DNA of 32,000 nucleotides from Gemmatimonadaceae bacterium (GTDB taxonomy: Bacteria; Gemmatimonadota; Gemmatimonadetes; Gemmatimonadales; Gemmatimonadaceae), in NCBI GenBank assembly GCA_036493735.1, contig DASXPH010000106.1:29110-61109 (forward strand), given 5' to 3'. The position numbers were made by a program, and so were the translations under genes. Of the stretch, positions 9,602 through 32,000 are shown one piece after another (position 1 is the stretch's first letter; each line of letters starts with the position of its first letter). Below the pieces are notes generated by a model. The model made no database searches, was not told the DNA's origin, and saw nothing but the letters and a program-made list of their open reading frames with translations.

Positions 9602-9609
9602 GAGTGACT

Positions 9610-15983: not shown

Positions 15984-16172
15984 ATGCGGACGAGGGCATT
16001 CGACGAGCATCGCGACTCGCCGCTCTGGCGCGCGCTGGAGGAGGTCGTCGCCGAATTGGTCGCGACACAGGAAATCACGATCAACACGGCGCCGGAGTAT
16101 GTGATCGGGTATCTCTGTCGCGAATTGATGGCGAAGCGAATGGTGTCAGCTGGCGCATCAGAAACCTCCTAG
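15984..16172 (+). CDS. Small hypothetical protein (62 aa).
   Basis: AGGAG lies 8 nt upstream of the ATG. GC-rich third codon positions. The sequence looks like a real protein (MRTRAFDEHRDSPLWRALEEVVAELVATQEITINTAPEYVIGYLCRELMAK...), unlike the Arg-rich overlapping frame of 15884..16234. Confidence 0.45.
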   Translation: MRTRAFDEHRDSPLWRALEEVVAELVATQEITINTAPEYVIGYLCRELMAKRMVSAGASETS

Positions 16173-16234
16173 CCGCCGGCCGCTCCGCGGCCGTTCACGT
16201 TAGGCAGATGATGTTTCCCGTTCCGAGGTTCCTC

Positions 16235-16663: not shown

Positions 16664-16677
16664 CTGTGCATCTTCCG

Positions 16678-16935
16678 ATGAAGACCGTCGTCTGGATCGT
16701 CCTCCTGGTCGTGCTCACTGGTGTGGGCGTCGCGTACCTGACAGCCTGGATGAGGCGAATCGCGACCTCTCCCGCGGAGCCGCCGGCGCCACGACCAGAT
16801 GAGGTGTCAGCGGACGCCGGCGCCGATGAGCTGAGGCATGAGCTCATGACCACGTCCGAGGGTACCAGGCTCCTGCTCAGGCAAGGACACCTGATCGCGC
16901 CCGTCGACAGCACGCGAAAGGAATCCAGCGGCTGA
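16678..16935 (+). CDS. Small single-pass membrane protein, hypothetical.
   Basis: MKTVVWIVLLVVLTGVGVAYLTAWM is a TM helix, followed by a Pro/Ala/acidic tail. Alternative GTG start at 16666. Support is weak. Confidence 0.4.
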   Translation: MKTVVWIVLLVVLTGVGVAYLTAWMRRIATSPAEPPAPRPDEVSADAGADELRHELMTTSEGTRLLLRQGHLIAPVDSTRKESSG

Positions 16936-16999
16936 GGCGGACACACCGTCGCGGTGTGCCCTATGCACTCTCGAGAGGCATTCTGCCCAGAGGTCGTGC

Positions 17000-18163: not shown

Positions 18164-18210
18164 CGGGGAGCGCTTCGTGCTGTCGATCAGTAGTTGATCG
18201 TCAAACCGTC

Positions 18211-18456
18211 GTGAATCCATTCGTGCTATTTGTCGGCATCGTCGCGCTGGGTGCCGGAGCGGGAGCCTATGCGCTCACAATGCGCGATCTAATTCGGCGA
18301 GGACGTCTCCATCGTCAGCGAGAGCGCTTGCTCGCCGCCGGACAGCCGATCGGTCTGCCTGATGGCCGCGTGCCTTGTCCTGAATGTGCCGAGGCGGTCC
18401 TCCCTCAGGCACGCCGCTGTCCGTACTGTCGCGCGACCATTCTCGGTCGCATCTGA
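18211..18456 (+). CDS. Small membrane-anchored zinc-ribbon protein, hypothetical.
   Basis: 81 aa with a GTG start. TM helix FVLFVGIVALGAGAGAYAL, then CPEC-(12 aa)-CPYC. Confidence 0.5.
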   Translation: MNPFVLFVGIVALGAGAGAYALTMRDLIRRGRLHRQRERLLAAGQPIGLPDGRVPCPECAEAVLPQARRCPYCRATILGRI

Positions 18457-18472
18457 CGCCGCGGCGGCAAGA

Positions 18473-18579
18473 GGCGCGACGTCCCGAACGGCGCGACGTC
18501 CGGAACGGCGGAGCCTTCGCAACACCGCGCTCTTTGGAACTCAGCGCCGTTTGGAACTCAGCGCCCTTGGATTCCCTAA
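18473..18579. repeat. 17-nt tandem-unit array 2 (3 type-1 units followed by 3 type-2 units), between convergent genes.
   Basis: GGCGCGACGTCCCGAAC (18473), GGCGCGACGTCCGGAAC (18490), GGCGGAGCCTTCGCAAC (18507), then GCTCTTTGGAACTCAGC (18529), GCCGTTTGGAACTCAGC (18546), GCCCTTGGATTCCCTAA (18563). The two halves are imperfectly complementary, giving a possible bidirectional terminator hairpin. Confidence 0.85.
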
Positions 18580-20057
18580 CGTTGCGTGCGCTGCCGAGCG
18601 AATAGAAGGTTGAATATGCGCACCCCGCTCACACCGCCGTTTCCGTCGGGAACGAACGTCAACACCGTCGGGCGGCCGCCGCTCGACTTCGTGCGGAACG
18701 CGTCGTAGCTGACCGGCTCGAGCGGCACGGCAGGATCGGTGACTACCGCGGCCTCGAGAGCGCCATTCTGAAAGGTTACGCGTACGTCGCCATAGGCCGA
18801 ATCGACGTACGTCCCGGCGTAACGCTCGAGTGGTAAGGACGGAGGCGACGTCGTACGCCCGCTTTGCGCCACCTGCGTCCGCGGGGGCCGCGCGAAGATC
18901 GGCTTGAGATCGACACTCCAGTCGCGGCGCGGACCATTGTCGAAGAGGTCGAACACGGTGTACATCAGGCCGTGGCGGAGCTCCGCGTGGTCGAGGTTCT
19001 CGAGCACGTAGACGCCGAGTCGTTTGTTCGGCTCGATGCCGATGATCGCGCAGAGGCCGTTGATGCTGCCGGTGTGCATCCAGACGTGCTGGCCGCGATA
19101 GTCCTGGATGAACCAGCCCAAGCCGTAGCTGAAGAAGTCGGGCTTCGCGAGCTGAAGCGCCGGGTACTCTTCCATCGGTGCCTGAATCTGTGGCGTGACC
19201 AACTCGGCGAAGGTGCTCTGCTTGATCAGACGCTTGTCGCCCACGCGCCCGCTGTCGATCACGAAGCGCATCCACTTGGCCATATCCGCCACGCTCGACC
19301 AGACGCTTCCCGCGGACGCCACGCCATCGGTGGACCGTACCGGTACGATCATCACGGAATCGCCAACGAGCGCGTGCGGCACGGCAACGTTAGGCTTGCC
19401 CATGATCATCGAGACGAGCGGCTCCGTCTCGTTCATGCCGAGCGGGGTGAAGAGGCGCGTCTTGACGAACTGCTCCCACGGCATGCCGGAGACGCGCTCG
19501 ATGATCAACCCGTTGAGGGCGTACATGACATTGTGATACTGCCACTCCGAGCGGAACGAAGCCGTTGGTTCGATGTAGCGAAGGCGCCGGATGATGTCGG
19601 CCTCACTGTACTTCCAGTTCGACGCCCAGAACAAATCGGTGCCGGGAAGACCGCTGCGATGCGTGAGGAGGTCGCGGATCGTGATCTCACGCGTGACCCA
19701 TGGATCGTGCAGCTGGAGCTCGGGGATGTATTTCGTGACGGGGTCATCGAGCTTGAGCTTGCCCTCGTCCACGAGCATGGCGAGCAACGCGGACGTCATC
19801 GCTTTGGTCGTCGATCCGATCGCAAAGCGCGTGTGCTCGTTGGCAGGCTGCGGCTTTCCCTTCTCCAGCACGCCGTAGCCCTTGGCGAAGACGACCGAGT
19901 CGTCCTTGACGACCGCGATCGCGAGCGCCGGTATGCGCCAGTCAGCGGCGGCCTTTGCGACGTATTTGTCGAACGCGGCCCAGTCGGGTTTGGCCTGCGC
20001 GCCGAGCGTCTGCGCGGCGATGAGCAGCGCCGCCGGCAACCATCTTTGTGCTCTCAC
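18576..20057 (-). CDS. Secreted serine hydrolase / class C beta-lactamase-family protein.
   Basis: Start moved to GTG 20057, giving signal peptide (M)RAQRWLPAALLIAAQTLGAQA. S-x-x-K motif GSTTKAM and YHN motif. The C-terminal ~100 aa beta-domain is typical of this family. The longer track ORF runs through the heptamer repeat (LNAQR peptides) and is rejected. Confidence 0.85.
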   Translation of the reverse strand: MRAQRWLPAALLIAAQTLGAQAKPDWAAFDKYVAKAAADWRIPALAIAVVKDDSVVFAKGYGVLEKGKPQPANEHTRFAIGSTTKAMTSALLAMLVDEGKLKLDDPVTKYIPELQLHDPWVTREITIRDLLTHRSGLPGTDLFWASNWKYSEADIIRRLRYIEPTASFRSEWQYHNVMYALNGLIIERVSGMPWEQFVKTRLFTPLGMNETEPLVSMIMGKPNVAVPHALVGDSVMIVPVRSTDGVASAGSVWSSVADMAKWMRFVIDSGRVGDKRLIKQSTFAELVTPQIQAPMEEYPALQLAKPDFFSYGLGWFIQDYRGQHVWMHTGSINGLCAIIGIEPNKRLGVYVLENLDHAELRHGLMYTVFDLFDNGPRRDWSVDLKPIFARPPRTQVAQSGRTTSPPSLPLERYAGTYVDSAYGDVRVTFQNGALEAAVVTDPAVPLEPVSYDAFRTKSSGGRPTVLTFVPDGNGGVSGVRIFNLLFARQRTQR

Positions 20058-20142
20058 TTCGTTGTCCGTCCGGTAGAAAGTTGAGTTCAGCTTCAGAGTC
20101 GACGGCAATGATGAGGGGCGGGCATGCGTAGGGGAAGACGTG

Positions 20143-20253
20143 GAGCGTTGGGCGTGGTGCGTTGCGCGTTGAGCGTTGAGCGTGAGGCGCTGACTGCTGG
20201 TGACTGACATCCCAACGCTCAACGCACAACGCCCAACGCTCAACGCTCAACGC
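20143..20253. repeat. Inverted arrays of the 7-nt unit, second copy: GCGTTGA-type units at 20143-20193 and TCAACGC-type units at 20212-20253.
   Basis: Left arm: GCGTTGG GCGTGGT GCGTTGC GCGTTGA GCGTTGA GCGTGAG GCGCTGA. Loop of about 18 nt. Right arm: CCAACGC TCAACGC ACAACGC CCAACGC TCAACGC TCAACGC. It sits at the 3' end of the M28 peptidase gene (stop at 20247-20249, inside the right arm) and upstream of the hydrolase gene. Confidence 0.85.
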
Positions 20254-21485
20254 ACAGTTGCTCCCACCAGCCGTCCAATCGCGCCGAGTGTTGTCTGAGC
20301 CGACGTCAGGCCGAGCATGAAATCTTTGTCAGTGAACGTCGTGAGAACATCGGTCGGTTGATGATGCGTCGGATCCCAGTTGCCGCCGATCTGTGATCCC
20401 CGTTCGTTCTCGCGTAGGCTCAGCGCCGGCACCAGGTCCTTGAATGGATCCGAATCCGTATTGCTCATATGCGGGCCGACCGCGGCGGGATACTCCGTTG
20501 CGTACTTCTCGTTCGCGGCGCGCCAGAAGAAGGCGAGCTTCATCGCTTCGTCAGCGAACTTCGACGTGCTCGCGAACTCGATGTTGATGTCCGCTCCGGC
20601 ACGCTGCTCGGGCGAGAGCTTCCCGTCGGGAGTGGGCGGACCGTGATCGACCATCATCATGTCGTGCTGAATCATCGCGAGCCATTTCGGCTCCGGGTAT
20701 TTGCCGGATCCCGCTGGGATCTCCTTCCCCTGCATCGCTGCACGCTGGTCGACATAGGCGTGTGCGCCATTGAGTCCCGTCTCCTCGTTGTTCCAGAGCG
20801 CAAACCGGATGGAGCGCTCCGTCCGGACATCGGGCATCGAGAAGATGCGCGCGAGCTCCATCACGATCGCTGAGCCGGAGGCGTCGTCGTTCACGGCCTG
20901 ACCCCAGCCGATGCCGTCCATGTGGCCGCCGATGATGTACATCTCGTTAGGGTACTTCGTCCCCACCTTCATGCAGATCACTTCCTGCCGCTCGCCCGGC
21001 GTGGTCGGCTCCATGTCGATCGCGCGGATCTTGGGATCGGGCTGGGCCAACGAATCGTTGTTCGCGCCATGTTCACGCATGTCGCTGAAGATGCGGCTAC
21101 CGCCAGGTCCGTTGCCGGCGTAGCCATGGCCGTTGGATGACGTCACGGGTCCGCGCCCACGGCCGCCGCGCTGCGTTGGTGGAGGCGGGTTGTACTGATA
21201 GGTGATTCGCTCGACGTTCTGACACCCGTACTGCTTGAGCTGCGCCTCGATCCAGTCGACCGCGTCCCGATTGCGCTTCGTGCCCTGCCGACGATCGCCG
21301 AACTGGGCGAGTCCTTTGATGGTGTTCTTGTATCGCTCGAGGTCGAGACGATTGACGAGGAGCTGCACCGGATCGTTCGTCGTATCTGTCCCGGCTAGTG
21401 TAGCGGCACCGCTACTCTGCGCCGCCGCGCTCGAGGCCACTGAAATGAACGAACCGCATCCGATGATGAGTGCAAAGAGTCGCAC
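20247..21485 (-). CDS. Secreted M28-family metallo-aminopeptidase.
   Basis: 412 aa, GTG start, signal peptide MRLFALIIGCGSFISVASSAAAQ. Zinc-ligand motifs GGHMDG, NDDASGSAIVMELAR and NNEETGLNGA. Confidence 0.88.
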   Translation of the reverse strand: MRLFALIIGCGSFISVASSAAAQSSGAATLAGTDTTNDPVQLLVNRLDLERYKNTIKGLAQFGDRRQGTKRNRDAVDWIEAQLKQYGCQNVERITYQYNPPPPTQRGGRGRGPVTSSNGHGYAGNGPGGSRIFSDMREHGANNDSLAQPDPKIRAIDMEPTTPGERQEVICMKVGTKYPNEMYIIGGHMDGIGWGQAVNDDASGSAIVMELARIFSMPDVRTERSIRFALWNNEETGLNGAHAYVDQRAAMQGKEIPAGSGKYPEPKWLAMIQHDMMMVDHGPPTPDGKLSPEQRAGADINIEFASTSKFADEAMKLAFFWRAANEKYATEYPAAVGPHMSNTDSDPFKDLVPALSLRENERGSQIGGNWDPTHHQPTDVLTTFTDKDFMLGLTSAQTTLGAIGRLVGATVR

Positions 21486-21603
21486 GAGATCGCTCCGCGA
21501 TGTGGGTAACGCGGAAATTCTACCTCGTGATCGCGTCGCTCACCATGACAGGTGGCTTACTCTTCACTGAACACAAACCCTACCCTCGAAAGGAGCGGGC
21601 GCA

Positions 21604-22200
21604 ATGTCGAAGGTAGTCGCAATCATGTCCATGTCGCTCGACGGCTACGTGGCCGACCGCAACGATGGTGTTGCCGAAGTGTTCGACTGGTACATGCACT
21701 CGGGGAACGTCGAATTTCAGACTGGAGGGTCGGACCCGATGACGTTCAAAGTGTCCGCTCCGAGTGCCGAGCACCTTCGCGATCTCTGGTCTGAGCTTGG
21801 TGCCGTGCTTACCGGTCGACGCACCTTCGACAAGGCCGAAGGCTGGGGCGGAAACCACGCCTGGGGACCAGCATTCGTTCTCACCCACGACATCCCCGCC
21901 GGATGGCCCCGACCCAACTCGACAATCCACTTCGTGACCGACGGCATCGAAAGGGCCGTGAAGCAGGCGAAGGCCGCCGCCGGAGGCAAGGCGGTTGGGG
22001 TCCACGGCGCTGACACCATCCAGCAGTTACTGAATGTTGGACTTCTCGACGAGCTCTCCATCGACATCGCCGCGGTGCTTCTTGGCTCCGGCGTTCGCCT
22101 CTTCGACCATCTCGCCGGCACGCCGTCCGTCCTTGGCAACCCGACGGTGATCGCGGGAGTCGGCGTAACGCACTTGCGCTATGCCGTACGGAAATCGTGA
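21604..22200 (+). CDS. Dihydrofolate reductase-like protein (RibD C-terminal domain family).
   Basis: 198 aa. AIMSMSLDGYVAD...LTGRRTF...LLDELSIDIAAVLLGSGVRLF, typical of RibD_C/DHFR-like proteins. AAGGAG lies upstream of the ATG. Confidence 0.85.
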   Translation: MSKVVAIMSMSLDGYVADRNDGVAEVFDWYMHSGNVEFQTGGSDPMTFKVSAPSAEHLRDLWSELGAVLTGRRTFDKAEGWGGNHAWGPAFVLTHDIPAGWPRPNSTIHFVTDGIERAVKQAKAAAGGKAVGVHGADTIQQLLNVGLLDELSIDIAAVLLGSGVRLFDHLAGTPSVLGNPTVIAGVGVTHLRYAVRKS

Positions 22201-22244
22201 ACTTGGGCGGACGTGACATACGATGTCGTCGTCGCGCAACTCGC

Positions 22245-22589
22245 TCACCGCACGAGTTGCAGCGTCCCCGTCAACGCGTCGATCGCGGCGTCATTCGCCG
22301 GCCCTATTCCGAGACACGTTGCCGTGCCGGGAGCAACCACCGTGCGTCCTGCATCGCGGATCAAGTCCGCAGGCAGTGCGGCGGCGATCGCCTGACGCTC
22401 CAGCTCCAGTAGCTGCGTCTCGTCGTCAACGCGGAGCACGACCTTGGGCATGCCCTCTTCGAGCCATTGGCGGAGATCATCGTGCGCACGGACAGCGAGT
22501 AGCGCCGAGACCGATGCATGCGCGACCTGTGCTGCGAGCTTGCCGCGCGGGAGCCGCAGCGCTTCGTTGACGATAATGACCTGTTTCAT
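22245..22589 (-). CDS. pth2: Peptidyl-tRNA hydrolase, PTH2 (archaeal/eukaryotic-type) family.
   Basis: 114 aa. MKQVIIVNEALRLPRGKLAAQVAHASV...GMPKVVLRV...IRDAGRTVVAPGTATCLGIGP...TGTLQL matches the conserved blocks of PTH2. Confidence 0.85.
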   Translation of the reverse strand: MKQVIIVNEALRLPRGKLAAQVAHASVSALLAVRAHDDLRQWLEEGMPKVVLRVDDETQLLELERQAIAAALPADLIRDAGRTVVAPGTATCLGIGPANDAAIDALTGTLQLVR

Positions 22590-22600
22590 GAAGGGAAATT

Positions 22601-22733
22601 GAACGGCGCCGCCCGCCGTTTGGAACTCAGCGCTGTTTGGGACCGGGCGCCGTTTGGAAGTCAGCGCCGTTTGGAAGTCAGCGCCGTTTGGAAGTCAGCG
22701 CCGTTCGGAACTTCGCGCCCTTCCTAGTTTCGC
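22601..22733. repeat. 17-nt tandem-unit array 3 (a vestigial type-1 end followed by about 7 type-2 units, 3 of them identical).
   Basis: GAACGGCGCC (22601), then GCCGTTTGGAACTCAGC (22615), GCTGTTTGGGACCGGGC (22632), GCCGTTTGGAAGTCAGC three times (22649, 22666, 22683), GCCGTTCGGAACTTCGC (22700) and the degenerate GCCCTTCCTAGTTTCGC (22717). It lies between the pth2 start and the PadR-D promoter. Confidence 0.9.
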
Positions 22734-22759
22734 GGATGACAGGGTCCCGACCACCATTT

Positions 22760-22810
22760 CCTTGACATTCTAGGGAATCCCCATATCATGTCCTAGACAT
22801 TCTTGGGAAT
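22760..22810 (+). promoter_or_regulatory. PadR-D promoter with two direct operator-like boxes 32 bp apart.
   Basis: TTGACA (22762-22767), 16 nt, TATCAT (22784-22789). Boxes are CCTTGACATTCTAGGGAAT (22760-22778) and CCTAGACATTCTTGGGAAT (22792-22810), 17/19 identical. Each contains an ATTC-N4-GAAT mini-palindrome. The 11-mer TTGACATTCTA is identical to the PadR-B operator arm. Confidence 0.55.
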
Positions 22811-22814
22811 GATC

Positions 22815-23159
22815 ATGCCTGCCTCCGCGGTCGACGTTCTTCAGGGTACCCTCGACGTGCTCGTGCTCAAGGCGCTCTCGTGGGGCCCGCGACACGGCCA
22901 CGGCGTCGCCCGCGTCATCCGCGACACCACGTCCGGCACGCTCGACGTCACCGACGGCTCGCTCTACGTCGCCCTGCACCGCCTCGAGGAGCGCGGCCTC
23001 ATCGAGAGCGAATGGGGGCTCTCCGACAAGGGCAAGCGTGCCCGCTTCTACGAGCTCACCGCCGCCGGACGCCAGCAGCTCAAGAGCGAGATCGCGGCGT
23101 GGCAGCGCTACGCGCAGTCAGTCACCCGACTGCTCACCGCCACTGCCCAGCCGGCCTAA
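22815..23159 (+). CDS. PadR-family transcriptional regulator, 'PadR-D'.
   Basis: [35 protein letters not shown]...[40 protein letters not shown]. Alternative in-frame starts at 22803 (TTG) and 22809 (ATG). The stop is 2 nt before the permease D ATG. Confidence 0.9.
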
Positions 23160-23161
23160 CG

Positions 23162-25831
23162 ATGCCGTCGCCGAGGTGGCGCAGGTACCTCCGCTTCTGG
23201 CGGAGCGACGTCGACGGCGACCTCGATGAGGAATTCCGCTTTCACGTGGATGCCGAAGCGGAATACCTCGTCGCGCGCGGCTGGTCGGCTGAGGCGGCGC
23301 GCGACGAAGCGCTTCGGCTGTTCGGAGATGTCGACGCGTTCCGACGGGACGCCCGCGCCGCGGACGAACGTCGCATGGGGCGCGCCCAGCGCAAGGAGAA
23401 TCTCGCCGTGCTGCTACAAGACCTTCGCTTCGCCCTTCGCTCCCTGCGCCGCCAGCCGGCGTTCACCGCGATCGCCGTCATCACTCTTGCGTTGGGCATC
23501 GGCGCCAACACAGCGATCTTCAGCGTCGTCAACGGCGTGATGCTTAAGCCCCTTCCCTATCGCGAGCCGAAGCAGCTCGTGATGCTGTGGGAGACGATGC
23601 CGGGCGGCGACCGTCCACTCCTCTCCTATCCGAACTACCTGGACTGGCGCCAGCGGCAGCGCGGCTTCGAGGACATCGCGGTCTACAATCCCTTTCCCGG
23701 GTTCACCATGACGGGACAGGGCGATGCGGCGGACATCAACGGCTCGCTGGTGACGGGAAACTATCTCCAGCTCCTGGGCTTGCACCCGGCGCTCGGGCGG
23801 CTGATCGCGGCGAGGGACGATTCGTTAGGCGCCGCGCCCGTCGTCGTCCTCCGCTATGGCTTCTTCCAATCACATTTTGGCGGCGATCCATCGGTGATCG
23901 GCCGCACGCTGCTGCTCGATAACGTCGCGTATACCGTCATCGGCGTGCTGTCACCGGACGCGCGCGTCTCCTACCGCGCGGGCGACGCTGATCCCGACGT
24001 CGTCCTACCACTCGGGCTCTTCGTGAAGGAACCTATGTACAACCGGACAAGTCCCGTTCTCTTCGGAGTCGGGCGTCTCAAGCCCGGTGTCAGCCTCGAG
24101 CGCGCGCTGGCCGACTTGCAGCGGGTGAGTGCCGAGTTGCGCGCTGAGTATCCAAAAGAGAACGCCGGGGTCGGCGCGGGCGGCGCGCCGATGATGGACA
24201 TGGTAGTGAAGTTCATCAAGCCGGCGCTCAGGATCATGACGGTCGCGGTGGCGCTCGTGCTGCTGATCGCGTGCGCCAACGTCGCCAACCTCGTGCTCTC
24301 GCGGTCCACGGCGCGTCGGCGCGAGTTCGCTGTGCGTACGGCACTCGGCGCGGACCGCGGTCGTATCGTGCGCCAGGTGCTGACGGAGAGCGTTGTGCTC
24401 GCGCTCGCGGGCGGCGTGCTCGGCGTCGGCATCGCGGTGCTCGGCGTGAAGCTGCTCCCCGTCGGGATGGATCCGCGCGGGGTGCCGCGCTTCGCGGAAA
24501 TCACCGTGAATCAGACCGCGTTGCTGTTCGCGATTGCAGTGTCGGTACTCACGGGCGTGCTGTTCGGTCTCGCCCCCGCGATCCACTCAGGAAACACACA
24601 GCTCGTGAACGGGCTCAAAGAGGGTGGCCGCGGAACGAGCGGTGCATCGAAGCAGCGGACGCAGGCTATCCTGACGATTGCGGAAGTGGCGCTTGCCGCC
24701 GTGCTGCTGACAGCATCCGGATTGCTCGTGCGCAGCTTCGTCAAGCTGACCGCGGTCGACCCCGGATTCCAGCCGGCGCACGTCGTCGGCGCTGTCTTGC
24801 AGCTATCATCGGGCAAGTACCCCAATGCCGGTCGGGCGCGCGGGGCGCTGGACGAGTTGCTCGCCAAGGTGCGCGCGATTCCAGGATTGGAGAGCGCAAC
24901 GATGGGCTCGAGCACGCCGATCAGCCCACACTCGGAGTCGGCGGTGTCCTTCGAGTCACGTCCCGAGCCCGACGCGAGCAAGTTGCCGCGGCTGAACACC
25001 GCGGTGGTGGAACCGAACTACTTCGAGACGTTGCGGATCACGCTCACGAAAGGCAGAGCGTTCACGCCATCGGACGCAGCCGGCCAACCACAGGTCGCCG
25101 TAATCAGCGAGCGCGTGGCGAGGAAGTTCTTTCGGAAGACCAATCCGATCGGTGCGCGGCTCAAGCTCGGTCAGGCAGACGATACGAGTGCATGGCGCAC
25201 GGTCGTTGGCGTCGTGAAGGAGACGCGAACGGACGGGCTGAACGAGGCTCCCCACGGCACCGTGTATCTTCCGCGCGCACAGGAGGAGATGCGCGGCGGG
25301 TGGCTCATGGTTCGCAGCACGCTGCCCACCGAAGAGATCGCGCGGCTGCTGCGCGAAAGTCTCCGCGCAGTGGACCGTGACGTCCCGCTGGCGTTCGTGC
25401 AAACGATGGATGCCGCGCTCGACGAGGAGTTGCAGCACCCGAAGTCCTCGATGCTGCTGCTGGCGCTCCTCGCGGCGGTGGCACTCGCGCTGGCGTCGGT
25501 GGGCATCTACGGCGTGATCTCGTACAACGTCACGCAGCGCACGACCGAGATCGGGGTGCGCGTCGCGCTTGGCGCGCAGCGCCGCGACGTCGTGGCGCTG
25601 GTGGTGGGCCAGGCAATGACGATGGCCGCTGTCGGCGTCGGCATCGGGGTGCTGCTGGCGCTCTGGGCGGGCAAGGGTCTCAGCAGGATGTTGTTCGGAG
25701 TGGGGCCGCACGATCCGCTGGCCCTGGGAGGCGCGAGCGTGTTCCTGCTCGTCGTCGCGCTGGTCGCCGCGCTGGCGCCGGCATTGCGTGCGTCACGCAT
25801 CGATCCCACGATCGCGATGCGCGCAGACTAA
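23162..25831 (+). CDS. ADOP-type duplicated FtsX/MacB permease with N-terminal prefix domain ('permease D').
   Basis: Start moved to ATG 23162 (residue 95 of track ORF 22880..25831). [57 protein letters not shown]..., then [35 protein letters not shown]. Two FtsX units. C-terminus [12 protein letters not shown]...[14 protein letters not shown]. Confidence 0.92.
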
Positions 25832-25834
25832 CGC

Positions 25835-25915
25835 CGCTGAAATTCCCAAACGGCGCGAAGTTCCGCCGTTTGGAAGTCAGCGAAGTCGGGCACTCCGCGC
25901 CGTTTGGACCTCTGC
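25835..25915. repeat. 17-nt tandem-unit array 4 (degenerate type-1 units followed by type-2 units), including a 10-bp stem hairpin just after the permease D stop.
   Basis: CGCTGAAATTCCCAAAC, GGCGCGAAGTTCC, then GCCGTTTGGAAGTCAGC (25865), GAAGTCGGGCACTCCGC (25882), GCCGTTTGGACCTCTGC (25899). Hairpin: CCAAACGGCG (25846-25855), 8-nt loop, CGCCGTTTGG (25864-25873). No U-tract follows it. Confidence 0.8.
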
Positions 25916-25963
25916 GACTTTCGCCCCCAGGCTCCAAACCCTTCGAACGCCGCGGTTGTCTTA

Positions 25964-25982
25964 CCTTCAGACCATCTGAAGG
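25964..25982 (+). promoter_or_regulatory. Palindrome CCTTCAGA-N3-TCTGAAGG abutting the PadR-E ribosome-binding site (candidate operator).
   Basis: 8-bp perfect arms at 25964-25971 and 25975-25982, followed directly by AAGGAG (25983-25988) and the GTG start at 25994. I could not find a convincing -35/-10 pair. Confidence 0.35.
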
Positions 25983-25993
25983 AAGGAGATCCC

Positions 25994-26350
25994 GTGGCCG
26001 ATGACCGTACCGAGCTCCTCCAGGGCACACTGGAGATGCTCGTGCTCCGTACCCTCGCGCTGGAGCCGATGCACGGTTGGGGCATCGCCCACCGCATCAC
26101 CCACATGTCCCGCGACGCCTTTCTCGTCACCCAGGGTTCGCTCTATCCCGCCCTCGTTCGCATGAAGCGGCGAGGTTGGGTGAAGTCGAGCTGGCGCAAG
26201 ACGGAGAACAGTCGACGCGCCCGATACTACGAGCTCACCGCCGCTGGACAGCAGCAGCTCGAGGCCGAGCGCGCGGTGTGGGCGCGCGCGTCCGCCGCGG
26301 TCGAGAGCGTCCTCAGTCCACGCTGGACCATCGCGAGCCTTGCCATATGA
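25994..26350 (+). CDS. PadR-family transcriptional regulator, 'PadR-E'.
   Basis: Start moved to GTG 25994, with AAGGAG 5 nt upstream. (M)ADDRTELLQGTLEMLVLRTLALEPMHGWGIAHRI...QGSLYPALVRMKRRGWVKSSWRKTENSRRARYYELTAAGQ. ATGA overlap with the permease E start. Confidence 0.9.
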   Translation: MADDRTELLQGTLEMLVLRTLALEPMHGWGIAHRITHMSRDAFLVTQGSLYPALVRMKRRGWVKSSWRKTENSRRARYYELTAAGQQQLEAERAVWARASAAVESVLSPRWTIASLAI

Positions 26351-28992
26351 GCATTCTCTCAGATATCGCCGAGCGCGTTCGCGCCCTACTCTTCCACTCA
26401 CGCGACGAACGCGAGCTCGAGGAAGAGCTTCGTACGCACATGGCAATGGAAGCCGAGTATCTACGGCGCACGGGCGCTTCCGAGCAACACGCGCGTCGCG
26501 CGAGCGCGATCGCGCTGGGCGGCGTCGAGCGTGTCAAGGACGATGTGCGCGATGCCCGGGGCACCCGCTTCCTGCACGACGTCTGGCGCGACATCGGCTT
26601 CGCCGTACGGACGCTCGCCGCCAATCCCGGCTTCACGCTCGTGACGCTGGCGACGCTCGCCATCGGCATCGGTGGAACTACGGCAGTGTTCAGCGCCGTC
26701 GACGCCGTGCTGCTCCAACCGTTGCCGTACGCCCAGCCTGGCCAGCTCGTTCGCCTCTACCAACATCGGGACGACCAGCCTAACGACCGCAGCGTCGTGA
26801 CACCCGTGCACTTCGTCGAGATTCGCCGTCGCATGACCGCGTTCGCCGCGACCGCCGCGCTCAACCTCTACTCCGAGAGCGGCGCCGATATCGGCTCGGG
26901 CGATCAGGTGCAAAGAATCCGCACGATCGCCACGACCGTCGACTACTTCGACGTCCTCCACGTTCACCCGGAGATGGGTCGCGGGTTCACACCCGACCAG
27001 GAGATCGGCGCCGACGTCGCGGTCATCAGCCATGACCTCTGGCGCGAGCGGCTCGGCGGCGATCGCAACGCGATCGGTCGAACGCTCATGATGAACGGAC
27101 GTCCCGTCACGATCATCGGCATCATGCCTAACGGCTTCCGCGATCCGCTCGTCGGCCGCGTCGACGCGCTCGTGCCGCTCGATCTCCGCCCCGCGCTCGA
27201 TCCGAGCAACGCCGGCAACTTCTATCTCAGCGTGGTCGCGCGGCTGCGCCCCGGGACCACGATCCAGCGCGCGCAGGCGGAGCTCGATGCAGTCAATCTC
27301 GCCATCGCCGAGAAGTATGCCCAGGCGAAGCGGATGCGCGCGAGCATCTACTCGCTCAAGGAAGACATCGTCGGCCCTTCTACGCGTGCGCTGACGCTGA
27401 TGCTCGGCGCCGTGCTGCTCGTCCTCGTTCTCGTTTGCGTGAACGTCGCTAACCTGATGCTGGTGCGCGGCTCGGATCGCGCGCACGAGCTCGCGATCCG
27501 TGTCGCGTTAGGCGCCGAGCGGTGGCGATTGGTGCGTCAGATGCTCATCGAGAGCCTGACGTTGGCGATCGTCGGCGCGGTGGCGGGGCTGGTCGTGGCG
27601 CGAGTCGCGATGTCGGCGATTGTCGCGCTCGGCGCCAATACCATTCCGCGACTGACGTCCCTGACGCTGAATCCGCGACTGCTCGCGTTCTCCTTCGTCG
27701 TCGCGACGATCAGCGCTGTGGGCTTCGGGCTCGCGCCGGCGATGCGCGCCTCTCGCACCCAGCCAACCGACGCGTTGCGTGAGCAGAGCCGCGGCTCGAC
27801 GGGTGGCGCCCGGAACCTCCGGCTGCGTGAATGGCTCGTCATTTCGCAGGTCGCGCTGGCGTTCATGTTGCTCGTCGGCGCGGGGCTGTTGATCTCGAGT
27901 CTCGACCGCCTGCAGCACGTGGACCTCGGCGTGAAGACCGCGAACGTGCTGACGTTCGACCTGAACCTGCCCGACGCGCGCTACGACTCGACCGCGCGCG
28001 GTGTGACCTACGAGCGTGTCGCGCGAGCTCTCGAGGCGCTGCCCGGCGTGCGCGCGGCCGGCGGCGTGTCGAAGCTGCCGGCGACGGGACAGTTCAACAC
28101 CTGGGGCGCTCACCCGCTCAGCGGACCGCTCGCGGGCGAGCAGAACCTCTGGCCGAGCGACGAGAATCGCGTCGTCTCGGGCGACTACTTCAAGGCGGTC
28201 GGCATCCCGATCGTGCGCGGCCGCGCGTTCGACGATCGCGACGTGCCGGGTGCGCCGCCGACGATGATCATCACGCAGTCGCTCGCCGACAAGATTTTTC
28301 CCGGCGTCGATCCGATTGGACAGAGCCTAACGACTGGCGGCCGTCGTGGCACCGTCGTCGGCATCGCTGGCGAAACATCGGTCACGAATGAGGGCACCGC
28401 GGGCATGTTCGTCTATCACCCGCACCGGCAGTTCGCGGGCGATCGCAACTGGGCGCTCACGCAGGTCGTGGCGCTGAACGGGTCCTCCGGTCAGACCGGC
28501 GCGATTCAGCGGTCGGTGCGTTCCGCGATCGCGTCGATCGATCCGCTGCTGGTCATGTACAAGCCCGCGACGCTCGATGAAGCCGTCGGGCGTGGAGCCG
28601 CTCAGCGCGTGTTCACGTTGCGGATTCTCGGCGCGTTCGCGGTCGTCGCGCTGATTCTCGCCGCGCTCGGGCTCTTCGGTGTGTTGTCGTATGGCGTTCG
28701 ACTGCGCGGCCGGGAGTTCGGCATTCGCATGGCGCTCGGCGCGCAGCCGGCGGGCATTCGCGTCATGGTGCTCCGCCAGGGATTGATCGTGAGCGGCATC
28801 GGGATCGCCGTCGGCGTGGCATTCGCCGCCGGTCTCTCACGCTTCATGCGATCGATGCTGTTCGAGGTGAGCCCGCTCAACCCCATCGTGTTTGGCGGCG
28901 CGGTGGGGTTCATGATCGTCATCGCGGCGATGTCGGCCTATCTGCCGGCGCACCGCGCGACGTCAACGGATCCGCGGACTGCACTTCAGTAG
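26347..28992 (+). CDS. ADOP-type duplicated FtsX/MacB permease with N-terminal prefix domain ('permease E').
   Basis: Start moved to ATG 26347 (residue 91 of track ORF 26077..28992). MSILSDIAERVRALLFHSRDERELEEELRTHMAMEAEYLRRTGASEQHARRASAIALGGV..., then RDIGFAVRTLAANPGFTLVTLATLAIGIGGTTAVF. Two FtsX units. C-terminus REFGIRMALGAQ...YLPAHRATSTDPRTALQ. Confidence 0.92.
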   Translation: MSILSDIAERVRALLFHSRDERELEEELRTHMAMEAEYLRRTGASEQHARRASAIALGGVERVKDDVRDARGTRFLHDVWRDIGFAVRTLAANPGFTLVTLATLAIGIGGTTAVFSAVDAVLLQPLPYAQPGQLVRLYQHRDDQPNDRSVVTPVHFVEIRRRMTAFAATAALNLYSESGADIGSGDQVQRIRTIATTVDYFDVLHVHPEMGRGFTPDQEIGADVAVISHDLWRERLGGDRNAIGRTLMMNGRPVTIIGIMPNGFRDPLVGRVDALVPLDLRPALDPSNAGNFYLSVVARLRPGTTIQRAQAELDAVNLAIAEKYAQAKRMRASIYSLKEDIVGPSTRALTLMLGAVLLVLVLVCVNVANLMLVRGSDRAHELAIRVALGAERWRLVRQMLIESLTLAIVGAVAGLVVARVAMSAIVALGANTIPRLTSLTLNPRLLAFSFVVATISAVGFGLAPAMRASRTQPTDALREQSRGSTGGARNLRLREWLVISQVALAFMLLVGAGLLISSLDRLQHVDLGVKTANVLTFDLNLPDARYDSTARGVTYERVARALEALPGVRAAGGVSKLPATGQFNTWGAHPLSGPLAGEQNLWPSDENRVVSGDYFKAVGIPIVRGRAFDDRDVPGAPPTMIITQSLADKIFPGVDPIGQSLTTGGRRGTVVGIAGETSVTNEGTAGMFVYHPHRQFAGDRNWALTQVVALNGSSGQTGAIQRSVRSAIASIDPLLVMYKPATLDEAVGRGAAQRVFTLRILGAFAVVALILAALGLFGVLSYGVRLRGREFGIRMALGAQPAGIRVMVLRQGLIVSGIGIAVGVAFAAGLSRFMRSMLFEVSPLNPIVFGGAVGFMIVIAAMSAYLPAHRATSTDPRTALQ

Positions 28993-29001
28993 ACGACCAA
29001 C

Positions 29002-29123
29002 GGCGCAAAGTCCCAAACGGCGCGACGTCCCAAACGGCGCGAGGTCCCAAACGACGCGAGGTGCCGAACGGCGCGGAGTCCTAACGGCGCTCTTCGGCAT
29101 TTTCGCGCTGTTTGGGACCTCGC
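29002..29123. repeat. 17-nt tandem-unit array 5 (5-6 type-1 units followed by 1 type-2 unit).
   Basis: GGCGCAAAGTCCCAAAC (29002), GGCGCGACGTCCCAAAC (29019), GGCGCGAGGTCCCAAAC (29036), GACGCGAGGTGCCGAAC (29053), GGCGCGGAGTCCTAAC (29070), a degenerate unit, then GCTGTTTGGGACCTCGC (29107). That last unit is perfectly complementary over 16 nt to the unit at 29036. The array lies downstream of the permease E stop. Confidence 0.9.
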
Positions 29124-29245
29124 GCTTTATGGAGCTCGGCTTGCCCTGGTCTCGATGTCGAGGCAGAATCTGACGAACCAGAGGGTACGATGCACTGATC
29201 GGAGTCGATCGAGGCTTCGAGTTCCCTCACTGCCCGATATCGACA

Positions 29246-30088
29246 TTGACCGCCCAATCTCGCCTTCTCCTCGCATGCATCTCGCTCGTCGCCTGCGCGA
29301 GTGCACCGCGCGCGATCCCTTCATCCACGGCGCCCAGCGTCCCGAGCACGACGCTCCGCGTGATGACGTACAATATCCAGTCCGGTCATGGTGACATCGA
29401 TCGAACCGCGGCGACGATTCGCGCGTTCTCGCCCGATATCGTTGGCCTCGAGGAAGTGGACGTGCACTGGGCAGAGCGCAGCGGCTTCGTCGATCAGGCA
29501 AGTCGGCTCGGCCAGTCGCTGGGCATGCCCGTGCGCTTCGCGCACATCTACGCGTTTCCCGGCGCGACCGTGGATGCAGCGAATCGCGAGTTCGGTGTCG
29601 CGCTCGTGAGTCGTTATCCGATCGTGGCGTGGGAAAACGATACGCTCACGCGACTCTCCACGCAGACGGAGAATCCCGTGCCCACGCGCATGCCGGGCCT
29701 GCTCGCGGCGACGATCGACGTGCATGGTACGCGTGTCCGCGTGTTCGTGACCCACCTCGACTACCGCAAGAATCCATCGGTGCGACGAACGCAGATCGCT
29801 GAGATGCTCGCGCGCATCGGTGCGGTCGACTCCCCGACGCTACTGCTCGGCGACATGAATGCATCGCCCGATGCGGCCGAGCTCCAACCGCTCTTTGCCA
29901 GATTCCACGATAGCTGGTTGACGACAGCCGGGCCGGGGTTCACTTATCCGGCAGACACGCCCACCGAACGCATCGACTACGTTCTCCTGTCGCCTAACGG
30001 CAAGGTCGACACAGCATTCGTTCCAGTGGTTCCCGACGCTTCTGATCACCGCCCGGTTGTCGTTGATCTGTCGTTCGGCCATAACTGA
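29246..30088 (+). CDS. Endonuclease/exonuclease/phosphatase (EEP) family protein, probable lipoprotein.
   Basis: 280 aa. TTG start; there is no in-frame ATG upstream of the conserved core. LLLACISLVAC lipobox. EEP motifs VMTYNIQSG, VGLEEVD, LLLGDMNA, SDHRPVVVDL. Confidence 0.82.
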   Translation: MTAQSRLLLACISLVACASAPRAIPSSTAPSVPSTTLRVMTYNIQSGHGDIDRTAATIRAFSPDIVGLEEVDVHWAERSGFVDQASRLGQSLGMPVRFAHIYAFPGATVDAANREFGVALVSRYPIVAWENDTLTRLSTQTENPVPTRMPGLLAATIDVHGTRVRVFVTHLDYRKNPSVRRTQIAEMLARIGAVDSPTLLLGDMNASPDAAELQPLFARFHDSWLTTAGPGFTYPADTPTERIDYVLLSPNGKVDTAFVPVVPDASDHRPVVVDLSFGHN

Positions 30089-30158
30089 TCGAGCACCCAC
30101 TGAATCGCTCCCCTCACATCTCGTTCCTCCCCCTCCCCTTCCCGTGGAGAATGACGTG

Positions 30159-32000
30159 ATGATCGACACATCTCACCGACGCGCTCTGGCGGCGTTCGTC
30201 TTCGCCGTGGCACTGGGCGCGACTGCCCACGTCACAGGCGCGCAGACCGGCACCGTCACTGGGCGAGTGACCGACGCGCACACGGGTACGCCCGTGGTGA
30301 CGGCGCAGATCACCGTCGCGGGCAGCACACTTGGCACGAGCGTCGACCCGCATGGACGCTTCCGCCTGACGAGTGTCCCCGCCGGCACACACGAGATTCG
30401 CGCGCGCAGTCTCGGCTATGCACCCGGGAGCGCGAACGTTATCGTCACCGACGGCGGAACGGCCGACATTACGGTGGCCCTCGAGCCTGCCGCCACCGCG
30501 CTCGATGCCGTCGTCGTCACGGGAACGGCGGGCGACACGCGGCGCCGCGCCATCGGGAATGCCGTGTCGACGGTGGCCGTCGCCGACGTCGTTGACAAAG
30601 CCACCGTCAGCAATGTCACCGAGGTACTGCAATCGAAGGTGCCCGGTTTGACGCTCGTTCCCGGCTCGGGCTCGGCCGGCACGTCCGCGAACTATCGATT
30701 GCGTGGCGCGGGCTCCCTCTACGCCGGCAATACGCCGACGATCTACGTGGACGGCGTGCGCGTCACCACGCGCGATCAGGGTAGCTATACCGTCTTCGGC
30801 CAGACCACATCGTCGCTCGACGCGATCAATCCTAACGACATCGAGTCGATCGAAGTCATCAAGGGTCCGGCGGCGGCGACGCTCTACGGCGCCCAGGCAG
30901 CGTCAGGCGTCATTCAGATCATCACGAAGCGTGGGCTCGCCGGACAGACGCAGTGGAACGCCCGTGTCGAGACGGGCTATTCGGAGTGGCCGGCCTCGAT
31001 GCGGCCGGTGAACTACGCGGTCGCCACTGCCGCGCGTATCGCCGATACCGCGAACTACCCCGGCTTCGCCGGTCGCGCGGTGGGTGACATCATCTCACAT
31101 CGCGTGATGTCCGAGCCTAACGCGCTGCGCAACGGAGACCTGTCGAAGATGAGCCTTTCGACGAGTGGAGGCGGCGATCGCTTCACCTTCTTCGTATCGG
31201 GCGAGCAGAACAAGGAAGAAGGCGTGAACCTCAACAACTACGCCAACCTCGGCTCACTGCGCGGCAACTTCTCCTTCGTGCCGTCGAACAAGCTGAGCTT
31301 CAACACCAACATCGGGTACAGCCGCAACCATGTGAGGCTGCCGCTCAACGACAACATCGCCTTCGGACTCATCATCAGCTCCTATCTGGCGATCCCCGGA
31401 CGCAAGTATCCCTATCCGGCGGGACTCGACTACTTCACCATCCTCCCCGAAGTCGCCAACACCTACGACAACCAGACGCAATCCGATCGTTTCATTCTCG
31501 GATCGTCAGGCGACTACAGACCGTTCTCCTGGCTCACGAACAAGGTGCGCGTCGGCCTCGACATGAACATCGGACAGGCGGAGTTGTACTTCCCGCCGCA
31601 GCCGGCAGGGCTCGATCCATTCAGCGCTCGCGCGAGCTTCGACCTCGTCAACACCAAAGGATTCATCGCGCAGGGACGACCGATCAACGAGAACCTCACG
31701 CTGAACTACGACGGGACGATCACGCACGCGTTCTCGACCTTCGTCTCGAACTCCTCGCTCGGCGTGCAGTACCTCGCGGACGCATTTCACCGAACGGATG
31801 CGTTCGGCCAGGACCTCGGCTCGACGGGCGTACGATCGGTATCTTCGGCCGCCGTGACCACCGGCCGCGAGCAGGATACGACGCAGAAGTCGATCGGCTT
31901 CTACGTGCAGGAGCAGGCGGCGTGGCGCGATCGCCTCTTCGTCACCGGCGCGCTGCGCGTCGACAACAACTCCGCGTTCGGCTCCGACCTGCACCGCGTC
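30159..32000 (+). CDS. TonB-dependent outer-membrane receptor, SusC/RagA-like, with an N-terminal carboxypeptidase-regulatory-like domain. Partial; continues past the window end.
   Basis: Absent from the ORF track because it has no stop in the window. GGAGA lies 8 nt upstream of ATG 30159. MIDTSHRRALAAFVFAVALGATAHVTGAQ signal peptide. TGTVTGRVTDAHTGTPVVTAQITVAG...GRFRLTSVPAGTHEIRARSLGYA matches the CarboxypepD_reg-like domain. LDAVVVTG, then NDIESIEVIKGPAAATLYGAQAASGVIQIITKRG (plug domain). The frame stays open for all 614 codons to position 32000. Confidence 0.88.
   Translation, partial: MIDTSHRRALAAFVFAVALGATAHVTGAQTGTVTGRVTDAHTGTPVVTAQITVAGSTLGTSVDPHGRFRLTSVPAGTHEIRARSLGYAPGSANVIVTDGGTADITVALEPAATALDAVVVTGTAGDTRRRAIGNAVSTVAVADVVDKATVSNVTEVLQSKVPGLTLVPGSGSAGTSANYRLRGAGSLYAGNTPTIYVDGVRVTTRDQGSYTVFGQTTSSLDAINPNDIESIEVIKGPAAATLYGAQAASGVIQIITKRGLAGQTQWNARVETGYSEWPASMRPVNYAVATAARIADTANYPGFAGRAVGDIISHRVMSEPNALRNGDLSKMSLSTSGGGDRFTFFVSGEQNKEEGVNLNNYANLGSLRGNFSFVPSNKLSFNTNIGYSRNHVRLPLNDNIAFGLIISSYLAIPGRKYPYPAGLDYFTILPEVANTYDNQTQSDRFILGSSGDYRPFSWLTNKVRVGLDMNIGQAELYFPPQPAGLDPFSARASFDLVNTKGFIAQGRPINENLTLNYDGTITHAFSTFVSNSSLGVQYLADAFHRTDAFGQDLGSTGVRSVSSAAVTTGREQDTTQKSIGFYVQEQAAWRDRLFVTGALRVDNNSAFGSDLHRV

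Follow-up and report, generated by a model that had tools for sequence, protein, structure and literature searches.

Two tandem PadR-ADOP cassettes set among copies of a foldback repeat in a soil Gemmatimonadaceae genome

The DNA examined in this study is a stretch of 32,000 nucleotides (positions 29,110 to 61,109 of contig DASXPH010000106.1, assembly GCA_036493735.1) from an uncultured soil member of the Gemmatimonadaceae, with a G+C content of about 64%; the whole stretch is referred to here as the window. The text concerns two modules, D and E, that lie in tandem on the plus strand between positions 22815 and 28992, each consisting of a gene for a PadR-type regulator followed by one for a large membrane protein of the ADOP ("duplicated orphan permease") family, together with the 17-nt repeats found around and between them. 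PadR_D (22815-23159, 114 amino acids [aa], TAA stop) is a short, LmrR-like winged-helix regulator, and ADOP_D (23162-25831, 889 aa) begins with an ATG 2 nt past the PadR_D stop; PadR_E (25994-26350, 118 aa) starts with GTG, and its stop overlaps the start of ADOP_E (26347-28992, 881 aa) in an ATGA. Every coordinate that a first-pass annotation had given for the two same-strand modules was borne out, as were the tight gene junctions, which are kept unchanged in orthologues and are probably translationally coupled.

Pfam and NCBIfam scans, from which the gene map of the window was made, place all five complete PadR and ADOP pairs of the window (modules A to E) above curated family cut-offs. For the two modules of interest, PadR_D and PadR_E scored 128.4 and 140.7 bits against TIGR03433 (cut-off 101.8) and matched the PF03551 winged helix at 1e-18 and 2e-19, and ADOP_D and ADOP_E scored 922.5 and 794.7 bits against TIGR03434 (cut-off 622.3), covering model positions 1-803. 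The nearest solved structures of PadR_D are PadR/LmrR-type proteins, the nearest solved sequence to ADOP_D is MacB, and no database record was found for the exact ADOP_D protein. The pairs therefore belong to catalogued families, and a mechanistic proposal covering them has already been published (see below). To our knowledge, the original description of TIGR03434 was restricted to Acidobacteria; that restriction does not hold here, where the source belongs to the Gemmatimonadaceae, and the present NCBIfam name carries no lineage limit. Literature on TIGR03434 or the "duplicated orphan permease" amounted to incidental mentions at most, with a paper on Solibacter paralogues omitting the family, and no PADLOC defence-system model fitted the PadRs, the ADOPs or the PF05635 protein discussed below, apart from one weak LolE-type transmembrane (TM) match.

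ADOP_D consists of an N-terminal prefix followed by two halves, each made of one TM helix, a MacB periplasmic core domain and a three-TM FtsX region, and the duplication within a single chain is visible as two stretches matching PF12704 and two matching PF02687. An AlphaFold2 model of ADOP_E built from a 49-sequence alignment (pLDDT 81.5, pTM 0.65) predicts the order three N-terminal helices, amphipathic helix, TM1, periplasmic domain 1, TM2-4, TM5, periplasmic domain 2 and TM6-8, with the N-terminal helices placed at residues 17-41, 46-56 and 60-71 (local pLDDT 72-85). The best Foldseek match of the model was Escherichia coli YbbP of YbbAP-TesA (9ge6, E = 3e-18), followed by MacB, a pneumococcal MacB-like transporter, LolCDE, BceAB and HrtBA; E values against YbbP, MacB and LolE ranged from 3e-18 to 1e-9, with modest full-length TM-scores (0.40-0.43). 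Residues R378, R385, G389 and E402 of the TM2-TM3 loop and R787, E790, R794 and G798 of the TM6-TM7 loop are invariant. In MacB, the TM2-TM3 loop contains the major coupling helix that touches the ATPase, and a review covers this helix, mechanotransmission and BceAB as a case of such a transporter acting as a sensor (PMC5985334); YbbP is a duplicated single-chain permease (PMC12646458). Since the coupling-helix motif is conserved in both ADOP halves, we infer that ADOP probably still works with an ATP-binding cassette (ABC) ATPase encoded elsewhere. No such ATPase (PF00005) occurred among the window open reading frames (ORFs) scanned, nor among the called genes within the 1.5-8 kb flanks of eight E-orthologue loci, and over that range the permeases are orphans, as first annotated.

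The N-terminal prefix appears to be the part of ADOP that goes with the regulator. All five PadR-linked ADOPs of the window match perm_prefix_1 (NCBIfam, cut-off 30) at 36.9-56 bits, with 42.8 for ADOP_D and 36.9 for ADOP_E. Across all loci retrieved here and in other genomes (the latter are cited by their L numbers), 34 ADOPs had both the prefix and an adjacent PadR gene, 26 had neither, 13 had the prefix only (some of these being second genes of a tandem) and 1 had PadR only; the prefix is thus present in 34 of 35 PadR-adjacent ADOPs and absent from 26 of 39 PadR-less ones. The association persists when the ADOPs are collapsed into 51 groups at 55% identity (both 19, neither 23, prefix only 8, PadR only 1; Fisher p = 1.3e-6), and this statistical link between prefix and PadR is new here. 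Prefix residues E27, H31, G43 and G58 are invariant, with G58 of ADOP_E located at the turn between helices 2 and 3. As a separate observation, the second half of the prefix (e.g. window 10096-10240) follows the pattern G-[ML]-S-x-x-[DE]-A-x-x-A-x-x-x-F-G-N-V and gives weak UBA matches, one between ADOP_B and Pfam UBA (E = 0.001) and one to the UBA of RNF31 in a profile search of the PDB. The published domain with which the prefix is compared is HAAS, which has three helices with a GxP kink in the third and always lies beside a standalone PadR (Ravi et al., mSystems 2024, PMC11237479); that study listed HAAS fusions to FtsX/MacB-PCD permeases of Acidobacterium capsulatum and proposed the dyad as an alternative to two-component systems.

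Each of modules A to E bears a different palindrome at its start, and these palindromes are candidate PadR operators, with those of D and E lying in control regions that are conserved in orthologues. In module A (minus strand; ADOP 6529-9198, PadR 9195-9542), the palindrome CCCTTGTG-A-CACAAGGG (9553-9569, as written on the plus strand) adjoins the ribosome-binding site. Module B (plus strand; PadR 9740-10096, ADOP ending at 12705) has a perfect 15-nt inverted repeat, TGACATTCTACCAGA / TCTGGTAGAATGTCA (9704-9745), that spans the -35, the -10 and the ATG and encloses the promoter TTGACA-17-CATACT; its right arm includes the PadR_B ATG (9740), and the predicted module B mRNA may be leaderless or nearly so. 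In module C (minus strand; ADOP 12716-15367, PadR 15364-15708), an imperfect palindrome (15754-15783) lies over the promoter TTGACA-18-TATTCT. The promoter and operator region of module D (22755-22811, plus strand) is conserved in orthologues and contains the near-consensus promoter of the first-pass annotation, with a -35 TTGACA (22762-22767), a 16-nt spacer and a -10 TATCAT (22784-22789); with 11 of 12 consensus matches, this is a strong sigma-70-type promoter (the scanned region held 2 promoter-like sites, compared to 0.6 per shuffle). Around it lie GACAT/ATGTC half-sites at 22764-22768, 22788-22792 and 22796-22800 and the motif ATTCnnnnGAAT at 22767-22778 and 22799-22810. The block tttccTTGACATTCTAGGGAAT...TATCATGTCCyAGACA is kept in orthologues down to 71% ADOP identity, and the DNA just upstream of it is unrelated. 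Modules B and D, which have the two closest PadRs, share TGACATTCTA, found in both arms of the B palindrome and in the D promoter at 22763.

Taken as a whole, we read D and E, with a probability of roughly 0.72, as two independent, diverged PadR and ADOP cassettes that are separated and flanked by a lineage-specific foldback repeat (described below) and that act as HAAS-PadR-type circuits. Each cassette would then be a self-contained circuit from the cell envelope to transcription, in which a PadR dimer binds the cassette-specific palindrome over its own promoter or ribosome-binding site and represses both genes, and in which permease output stays in a fixed ratio to PadR, given that only 2 nt separate the genes in D and that those in E have 4 nt in common. 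The cytoplasmic three-helix prefix would be the presumed dock for PadR, and the two MacB-type periplasmic domains would engage a substrate on the outer, envelope face; the shift that this causes in the transmembrane stalk helices would alter how PadR is held and thereby change expression of the cassette.

Several observations weigh against this interpretation. The prefix turn reads FG[NDG][VR] (G-x-V or G-x-R) instead of the published GxP, with Pro in few homologues only; the five window prefixes have no match to DUF1700, DUF1129 or DUF1048 in Pfam at E <= 10; and a profile of 25 prefixes run against the PDB recovered no DUF1048 chain and only weak UBA-like matches. The prefix-PadR tally covers loci fetched through ADOP homology or the repeat, not whole genomes, and an ATPase partner for the ADOPs was not found in the window ORFs and E-orthologue flanks already described. 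The palindromes could act as RNA hairpins instead of operators, and the arms of the E palindrome are invariant across orthologues, which leaves covariation undecided between the two roles. Lastly, the outer units of the repeat decay gradually and a target-site duplication is not definable.

The alternative that survives best is one-component control of efflux, in which PadR binds a small toxic ligand directly, as LmrR/PadR does, and derepresses an efflux or extraction permease, the prefix having no signalling role. The window PadRs are LmrR-like in length and sequence, palindromes over promoters fit simple repression, and MacB-type permeases are known resistance devices (PMC5985334, PMC12646458). 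However, such a scheme does not account for the strong co-occurrence of the prefix with a neighbouring PadR, for the general lack of the prefix in PadR-less ADOPs or for four invariant residues in a cytoplasmic domain with no obvious part in transport, and the published HAAS-PadR proposal includes this very architecture (PMC11237479). We consider one-component control possible, though on balance improbable.

A second question is whether E depends on D, and it is answered largely by the region upstream of E (25935-25993, plus strand). This region contains CAAACC (25935-25940), an 18-nt spacer and TCTTAC (25959-25964), followed by the palindrome CCTTCAGA-cca-TCTGAAGG (25964-25982), which occurs once in the window and overlaps the Shine-Dalgarno sequence GGAAGGAG (25981-25988), as the first-pass annotation had noticed. 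As RNA, the palindrome folds into a hairpin of -29.2 kcal/mol (z = -5.0). The blocks CAAACC-N18-TCyTAC, the palindrome CCTTCAGA-N3-TCTGAAGG and the Shine-Dalgarno sequence are kept in spacing and sequence at six orthologous loci with at least 63% ADOP identity; the bipartite motif is present in L099, L100, L102, L105 and L106, where the E orthologue is preceded by a divergent gene (L099, L105) or an unrelated one (L100, L106). Because this region is conserved whatever gene precedes E, we conclude from its conservation that E must have a promoter of its own. The promoter scan found no sigma-70 consensus upstream of E, and the AAC...GTC spacing may point to an alternative sigma factor of the extracytoplasmic-function (ECF-like) type, a lead only.

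It had been suggested that E may be read through from D, and the two modules could form a single operon in which E is expressed mainly from the D promoter and the hairpin in the D-E spacer serves as an attenuator or processing site. The shared strand, the 162-nt spacer, the lack of a U-tract terminator and the missing sigma-70 consensus upstream of E would all suit this arrangement; however, the retention of the bipartite motif and palindrome down to 63%-identical orthologues behind different or divergent genes argues against dependence on D, hairpins in the spacer would impede read-through, and in L047 the next gene after D is a PF05635 gene that points the other way. A single D-E operon is therefore unlikely.

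The 17-nt repeat itself has a unit consisting of the 10-nt core CGCCGTTTGG and seven variable bases, with CCAAACGGCG as the inverted core. The core occurs 20 times in the window, compared to 4.1 times in shuffled sequence, and 18 of the 20 occurrences fall within the roughly 11% of the window that is non-coding. The copy upstream of D (22597-22733, plus strand), which sits between the PTH2 start and the D promoter, comprises a truncated inverted unit, GAACGGCG (22601-22608), and then 6-7 direct units (cores at 22614, 22631, 22648, 22665, 22682 and 22699); TRF calls a period of 17 at 22614-22712 (5.8 copies, score 135). In the copy downstream of E (28997-29128, plus strand), a 14-nt centre separates six inverted units (28997-29090) from about two degenerate direct ones (core 29106-29115), and TRF makes a call at 28999-29090 (5.5 copies, score 114). 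These two arrays are thus in opposite orientation; the downstream copy forms a strong hairpin (-80.2 kcal/mol, z = -5.6) and the upstream copy alone forms none above chance (z = +0.8). The positions of the repeats around D and E were as first annotated, but the D-E "array" (25835-25915, plus strand) looks like a remnant and has only three units, one inverted (25846-25855) and two direct (25864-25873 and 25898-25907, 34 nt apart), and is not called by TRF. The hairpin seen after the D stop is real: CCAAACGGCG at 25846-25855 pairs with CGCCGTTTGG at 25864-25873 over 10 bp, with no U-tract and no terminator-like site called. Two further copies, both on the plus strand, lie at 9605-9690 (about 2.5 inverted and 2 direct units), between the divergent PadR_A and PadR_B, and at 18470-18570 (about 2.5 inverted and 2.5 direct units; hairpin z = -3.1), between a convergent histidine kinase and beta-lactamase-family gene with no PadR or ADOP adjacent. 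In all, the element fills five intergenic spacers of the window. An Rfam search (gathering thresholds over the whole window; E <= 1 over 22400-29400) gave only a sub-threshold chance match.

A scan for two cores 7 nt apart, with one genome per species, identified 46 loci, of which about 36 came from Gemmatimonadaceae metagenome-assembled genomes; the pattern was not found in viral contigs. The consensus of 303 units is CGCCGTTTGG-[A/G/C]-A-[G/C]-T-[C/T]-N-G, with a spacing of 17 in 197 of 246 cases. A complete element consists of 4-6 units of CCAAACGGCG plus 7 nt, a short centre (often ACGACGTTTAACGTCGT) and 4-6 inverted units, making a palindrome of about 170-220 bp; the example at L028:480-685 folds at -73.8 kcal/mol (z = -8.9). 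In other copies the arms are 215-260 nt apart and the centre has its own inverted repeat, cggcagacccgtaacggcgcaaacaac. Middle forms (L007, L010, L023, L024, L026, L034, L046) combine this inner inverted repeat with second-order tandem repeats and have no ORF, and long forms (L045:5217-6068, L006:12-779, L099:6000-6582 and L057:944-1383, the last shared by L057 and L047) contain an ORF of 110-113 aa that matches 23S_rRNA_IVP, a four-helix-bundle protein (PF05635, 61-68 bits; cut-off 33.8). The window copies are ORF-less, no PF05635 ORF being present in the window. The 17-nt arrays are thus the inverted tandem arms of a nested foldback element that is specific to Gemmatimonadaceae, occurs in short (arms only), middle and long forms and takes up many intergenic spacers of these genomes. 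The element appears to be undescribed so far, and its characterisation as a nested foldback family able to carry a PF05635 gene is new here; no paper was found that connects genes of the PF05635 family with arms built of tandem repeats. The sole cargo seen is PF05635, which is not known to be a transposase, and no RAYT or transposase was associated with the element at the repeat loci examined, RAYT having been sought at those loci only.

Other identities were considered for the repeats and rejected. The 17-nt units are contiguous and without spacers, unlike CRISPR; their period, 17, is not divisible by 3, as coding repeats would require; and a composite transposon carrying D and E is at odds with the orientation of the arms around D-E, which is opposite to that of complete elements, and with the E orthologues, which have no downstream array. 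As further observations on the repeat, L006:490-640, inside a long form, contains a related but distinct 17-nt tandem unit, GGCCCAAACATCGCAAG, which suggests that the repeat comprises several sub-families, and contigs L098, L102, L103, L047 and L057 end inside or beside 17-nt arrays, which suggests that short-read assembly of these genomes breaks down at the repeats.

The arrays might also be imagined as iteron- or centromere-like sites at which PadR or another regulator binds and controls the modules, since an invariant 10-nt core and a variable 7-nt linker recur at a fixed period and two copies (9605-9690 and 22597-22733) lie in divergent promoter regions. We regard this as very improbable, given that orthologous promoters work without repeats, that copies occur at convergent 3' ends and beside unrelated genes, that a single site would not serve five PadR paralogues, each of which has a palindrome of its own, and that 17 bp is not a whole number of helical turns. 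The hairpins of the arrays may terminate or process transcripts and favour rearrangement.

The repeat is not fixed from strain to strain. At the upstream-of-D site, L048 (95.6% identical in nucleotides [nt]) has three inverted units, a 93-nt centre and four direct units, compared to less than one inverted unit and 6-7 direct units in the window, and the same site is empty in L049 (84% nt). Repeats are missing from D orthologues at or below 84% nt identity, where the promoter and operator are kept, and from E orthologues at or below 85% protein identity, where the control region is kept. Units in direct orientation stand before the E orthologues of L098, L102 and L099 and are lacking in L100, L101, L105 and L106, and a downstream array is absent at all seven. 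The spacer between the beta-lactamase-family and M28 genes holds inverted 7-nt arrays in the window (20139-20253) and 17-nt units with an element centre in L048 (1-330). The element therefore turns over between close strains, with unit number and content differing at the same site in strains that are 95.6% identical.

The D-E spacer may preserve one such event. Homology between the window and L047 (95.6%) stops at 25864, past the inverted unit and before the first direct one; in L047 and L057, two inverted units and then a PF05635 gene in the opposite orientation come after the D stop, and the contig ends just past the start of that gene. The element of L047/L057 aligns with the one directly upstream of the L099 E orthologue (75.8% nt over 442 nt) and with neither the L045 nor the L006 element, and this resemblance suggests that E may follow in L047/L057. 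From these alignments we would put at even odds a history in which a long-form element stood upstream of E, with D before it, in this lineage and the window strain lost the ORF, leaving one plus two units. Rearrangement at array sites is plausible more generally, with some synteny breaks coinciding with repeats, because relatives of E at 92% nt identity have other genes downstream, exactly where the window has the array, and because D-E adjacency is absent at 85-90% E identity. Contig L104, which was assembled independently from a different sample, matches window 25641-31325 at 99.97% identity, so the D-E junction and the downstream array are not assembly artefacts.

The modules themselves are old paralogues. 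Paralogues within the window are 31-37% (ADOP) and 37-52% (PadR) identical, and D and E, at 35% and 46%, are no closer to each other than other window pairs. Relatives elsewhere reach 98, 82, 71 and 67% protein identity for ADOP_D and 97, 90, 85, 79 and so on to 60% for E, and more distant relatives carry the E module singly, with other genes beside it. As a side note, the 71% ADOP_D orthologue at L052:1019-3605 seemingly lacks its first ~60 residues and its PadR gene, and could be either a true variant or an assembly or frameshift problem. PadR and ADOP are adjacent in all D and E orthologues, and D orthologues pair PadR identities of 100, 95 and 85% with ADOP identities of 98, 82 and 71%. 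The mirror-tree comparison put forward with the first-pass annotation as a check on co-evolution gave a mixed answer: over 27 PadR-ADOP pairs the correlation is high (Mantel r = 0.83, p = 2e-4) because it is driven by shared orthology. Among 17 paralogue-level representatives it is weak (r = 0.32, p = 0.01), and the five pairs of the window, too small a set to decide when taken alone, show no significant correlation (r = 0.31, p = 0.30). Judging from these comparisons, PadR and ADOP partners are co-inherited, with deep co-duplication only weakly visible because distances are saturated.

With so deep a divergence between D and E, and orthologues elsewhere at up to 98% (D) and 97% (E), a recent duplication is refuted, and the sequence comparisons identify D and E as independent, anciently diverged cassettes, their tandem arrangement being a juxtaposition of old paralogues and not a local duplication. 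The notion that D and E arose by local duplication with the arrays as duplication or recombination boundaries, for which the same-strand tandem genes, the repeats on both sides and between them and the synteny breaks at repeats (at 25864 in L047 and downstream of the 92%-nt E relatives) can be cited, is the least credible of the alternatives, as the nearest relatives of both modules are orthologues in other genomes, the repeat units (85-95% alike) are much more similar than the genes, distant orthologues are repeat-free, repeats also occupy ADOP-free sites (18470-18570 and 33 of about 36 genome loci, PadR or ADOP being directly adjacent at only three: L003, L007 and L023), and the adjacency of 4 of 5 window arrays to modules is not significant (binomial p ~0.13) where modules border about 45% of spacers. 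The repeats are thus neither a feature of the modules nor a mark of their duplication.

A more tentative proposal concerns the repeat family itself. Complete members of this apparently undescribed nested foldback family would be comparable to intervening sequences (IVS), with a PF05635 (S23p/Avd-like) gene in the loop of an 80-100 bp stem of 17-mers, and the PF05635 protein would recognise the CGCCGTTTGG core and drive spread or maintenance of the element. We hold this to be doubtful; if true, the protein family of 23S rRNA IVS would gain a mobile-element role outside rRNA, and reshuffling of PadR-ADOP cassettes at repeat sites would be explained.

The remainder of the window contains, in order, a partial ADOP gene (832-2, minus strand), molybdopterin dehydrogenase subunits and a histidine kinase (2278-6409), modules A to C, a set comprising a response-regulator-like gene, a kinase, a beta-lactamase-family gene, an M28 peptidase, RibD_C and PTH2 (15884-22589, with PTH2 starting at 22589 on the minus strand), modules D and E, an Exo_endo_phos gene (29246-30088) and, from a reading by eye only, a probable TonB-dependent receptor from 30703. 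The partial copy that the first-pass annotation placed at 1-832 is a real sixth ADOP, but it lies on the minus strand, and its match begins at position 1 of the ADOP model with no perm_prefix_1 match and no PadR gene upstream; the 120-aa ORF at 942-1304 (minus strand) has no family match. The count of six family members in 32 kb therefore stands, but their density is not extreme, since L055 packs six ADOPs into 14.4 kb. The ADOPs of L055:957-14404 (six) and L071:1932-10541 (four) are consecutive, on the same strand and without PadR or prefix, which looks like a different, tandem-array mode of organisation of the family. A second repeat family, with tandem 7-nt GCGTTGA followed by inverted CAACGCY, occurs at 834-879 / 924-951, just upstream of the partial ADOP, and at 20139-20184 / 20213-20253, between the beta-lactamase-family gene and M28; these heptamer arrays resemble the STRR heptamer repeats of cyanobacteria. 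Elements of the 17-nt or 7-nt type occupy 7 of about 17 intergenic spacers of the window, including most of the long ones.

The modules are nothing new in kind. Their value lies in testing the HAAS-PadR scheme that has been proposed in place of two-component signalling, for which the window supplies a clean natural set of five PadR and prefix-ADOP pairs, five different candidate operators and one ADOP that has neither prefix nor PadR. The foldback repeat explains the apparent bracketing of the modules as a genome-wide background feature, would account for the contig breaks at these sites and ties a tandem-armed foldback element to the protein family of the 23S rRNA IVS.

Compared to known systems, D and E are closest to the TIGR03433/TIGR03434 pairs, with which they share full-length scores, the MacB_PCD and FtsX duplication, a PadR directly upstream, no adjacent ATPase and membership in large paralogous families; however, the family type is "acidobacterial", the host here is not, and the family description states no function. 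ADOP resembles Type VII ABC transporters (MacB, LolCDE, BceAB, YbbAP) in how each half folds, in its periplasmic Porter/Sabre domains and in the coupling-helix motif, YbbP being likewise a duplicated single-chain permease and BceAB a precedent for a transporter as sensor; ADOP differs in having no fused or adjacent ATPase, and a prefix and PadR partner are absent from Type VII systems. In Listeria, two PadR-type regulators, LltR and LstR, exert strong autorepression on operons that encode membrane proteins of the DUF1700 and FtsW-like kinds (PMC6624303), and these operons resemble the cassettes in being PadR-first and encoding a membrane protein, theirs with an N-terminal DUF1700/HAAS region; in contrast, PadR is partnered there by a DUF1700 protein and by a homologue of FtsW/RodA, in a Firmicute host, and no common inducer is known. 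The HAAS-PadR dyad likewise places a standalone PadR beside a multi-TM protein whose N-terminus is a cytoplasmic three-helix domain; the cassettes differ from the dyad in a prefix without sequence match to DUF1700/DUF1048, in G-x-V where the dyad has G-x-P and in the lack of a PspC, Toastrack or LiaF context.

The foldback element is, like REP/BIME/REPIN sequences and miniature inverted-repeat transposable elements (MITEs), dispersed, intergenic, hairpin-forming, lineage-specific and strain-variable, but compared to REP/REPIN its 17-nt unit is not palindromic (z = +0.8 for the direct array) and has no Rfam match. Arms composed of short tandem repeats are likewise a trait of eukaryotic foldback elements. 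The nearest parallel to the long forms is found in the 23S rRNA IVS of Coxiella and Leptospira, of which that of Coxiella burnetii is regarded as a selfish element with an S23p ORF in a stem loop that is cut by RNase III (PMC4990558). In both, a PF05635 ORF is enclosed by a long stem of terminal inverted repeats; however, the foldback element is intergenic between protein genes instead of lying in rRNA helices, is multi-copy, has ORF-less derivatives and has arms of 70-100 bp made of tandem 17-mers, compared to the 28-bp stem of the IVS.

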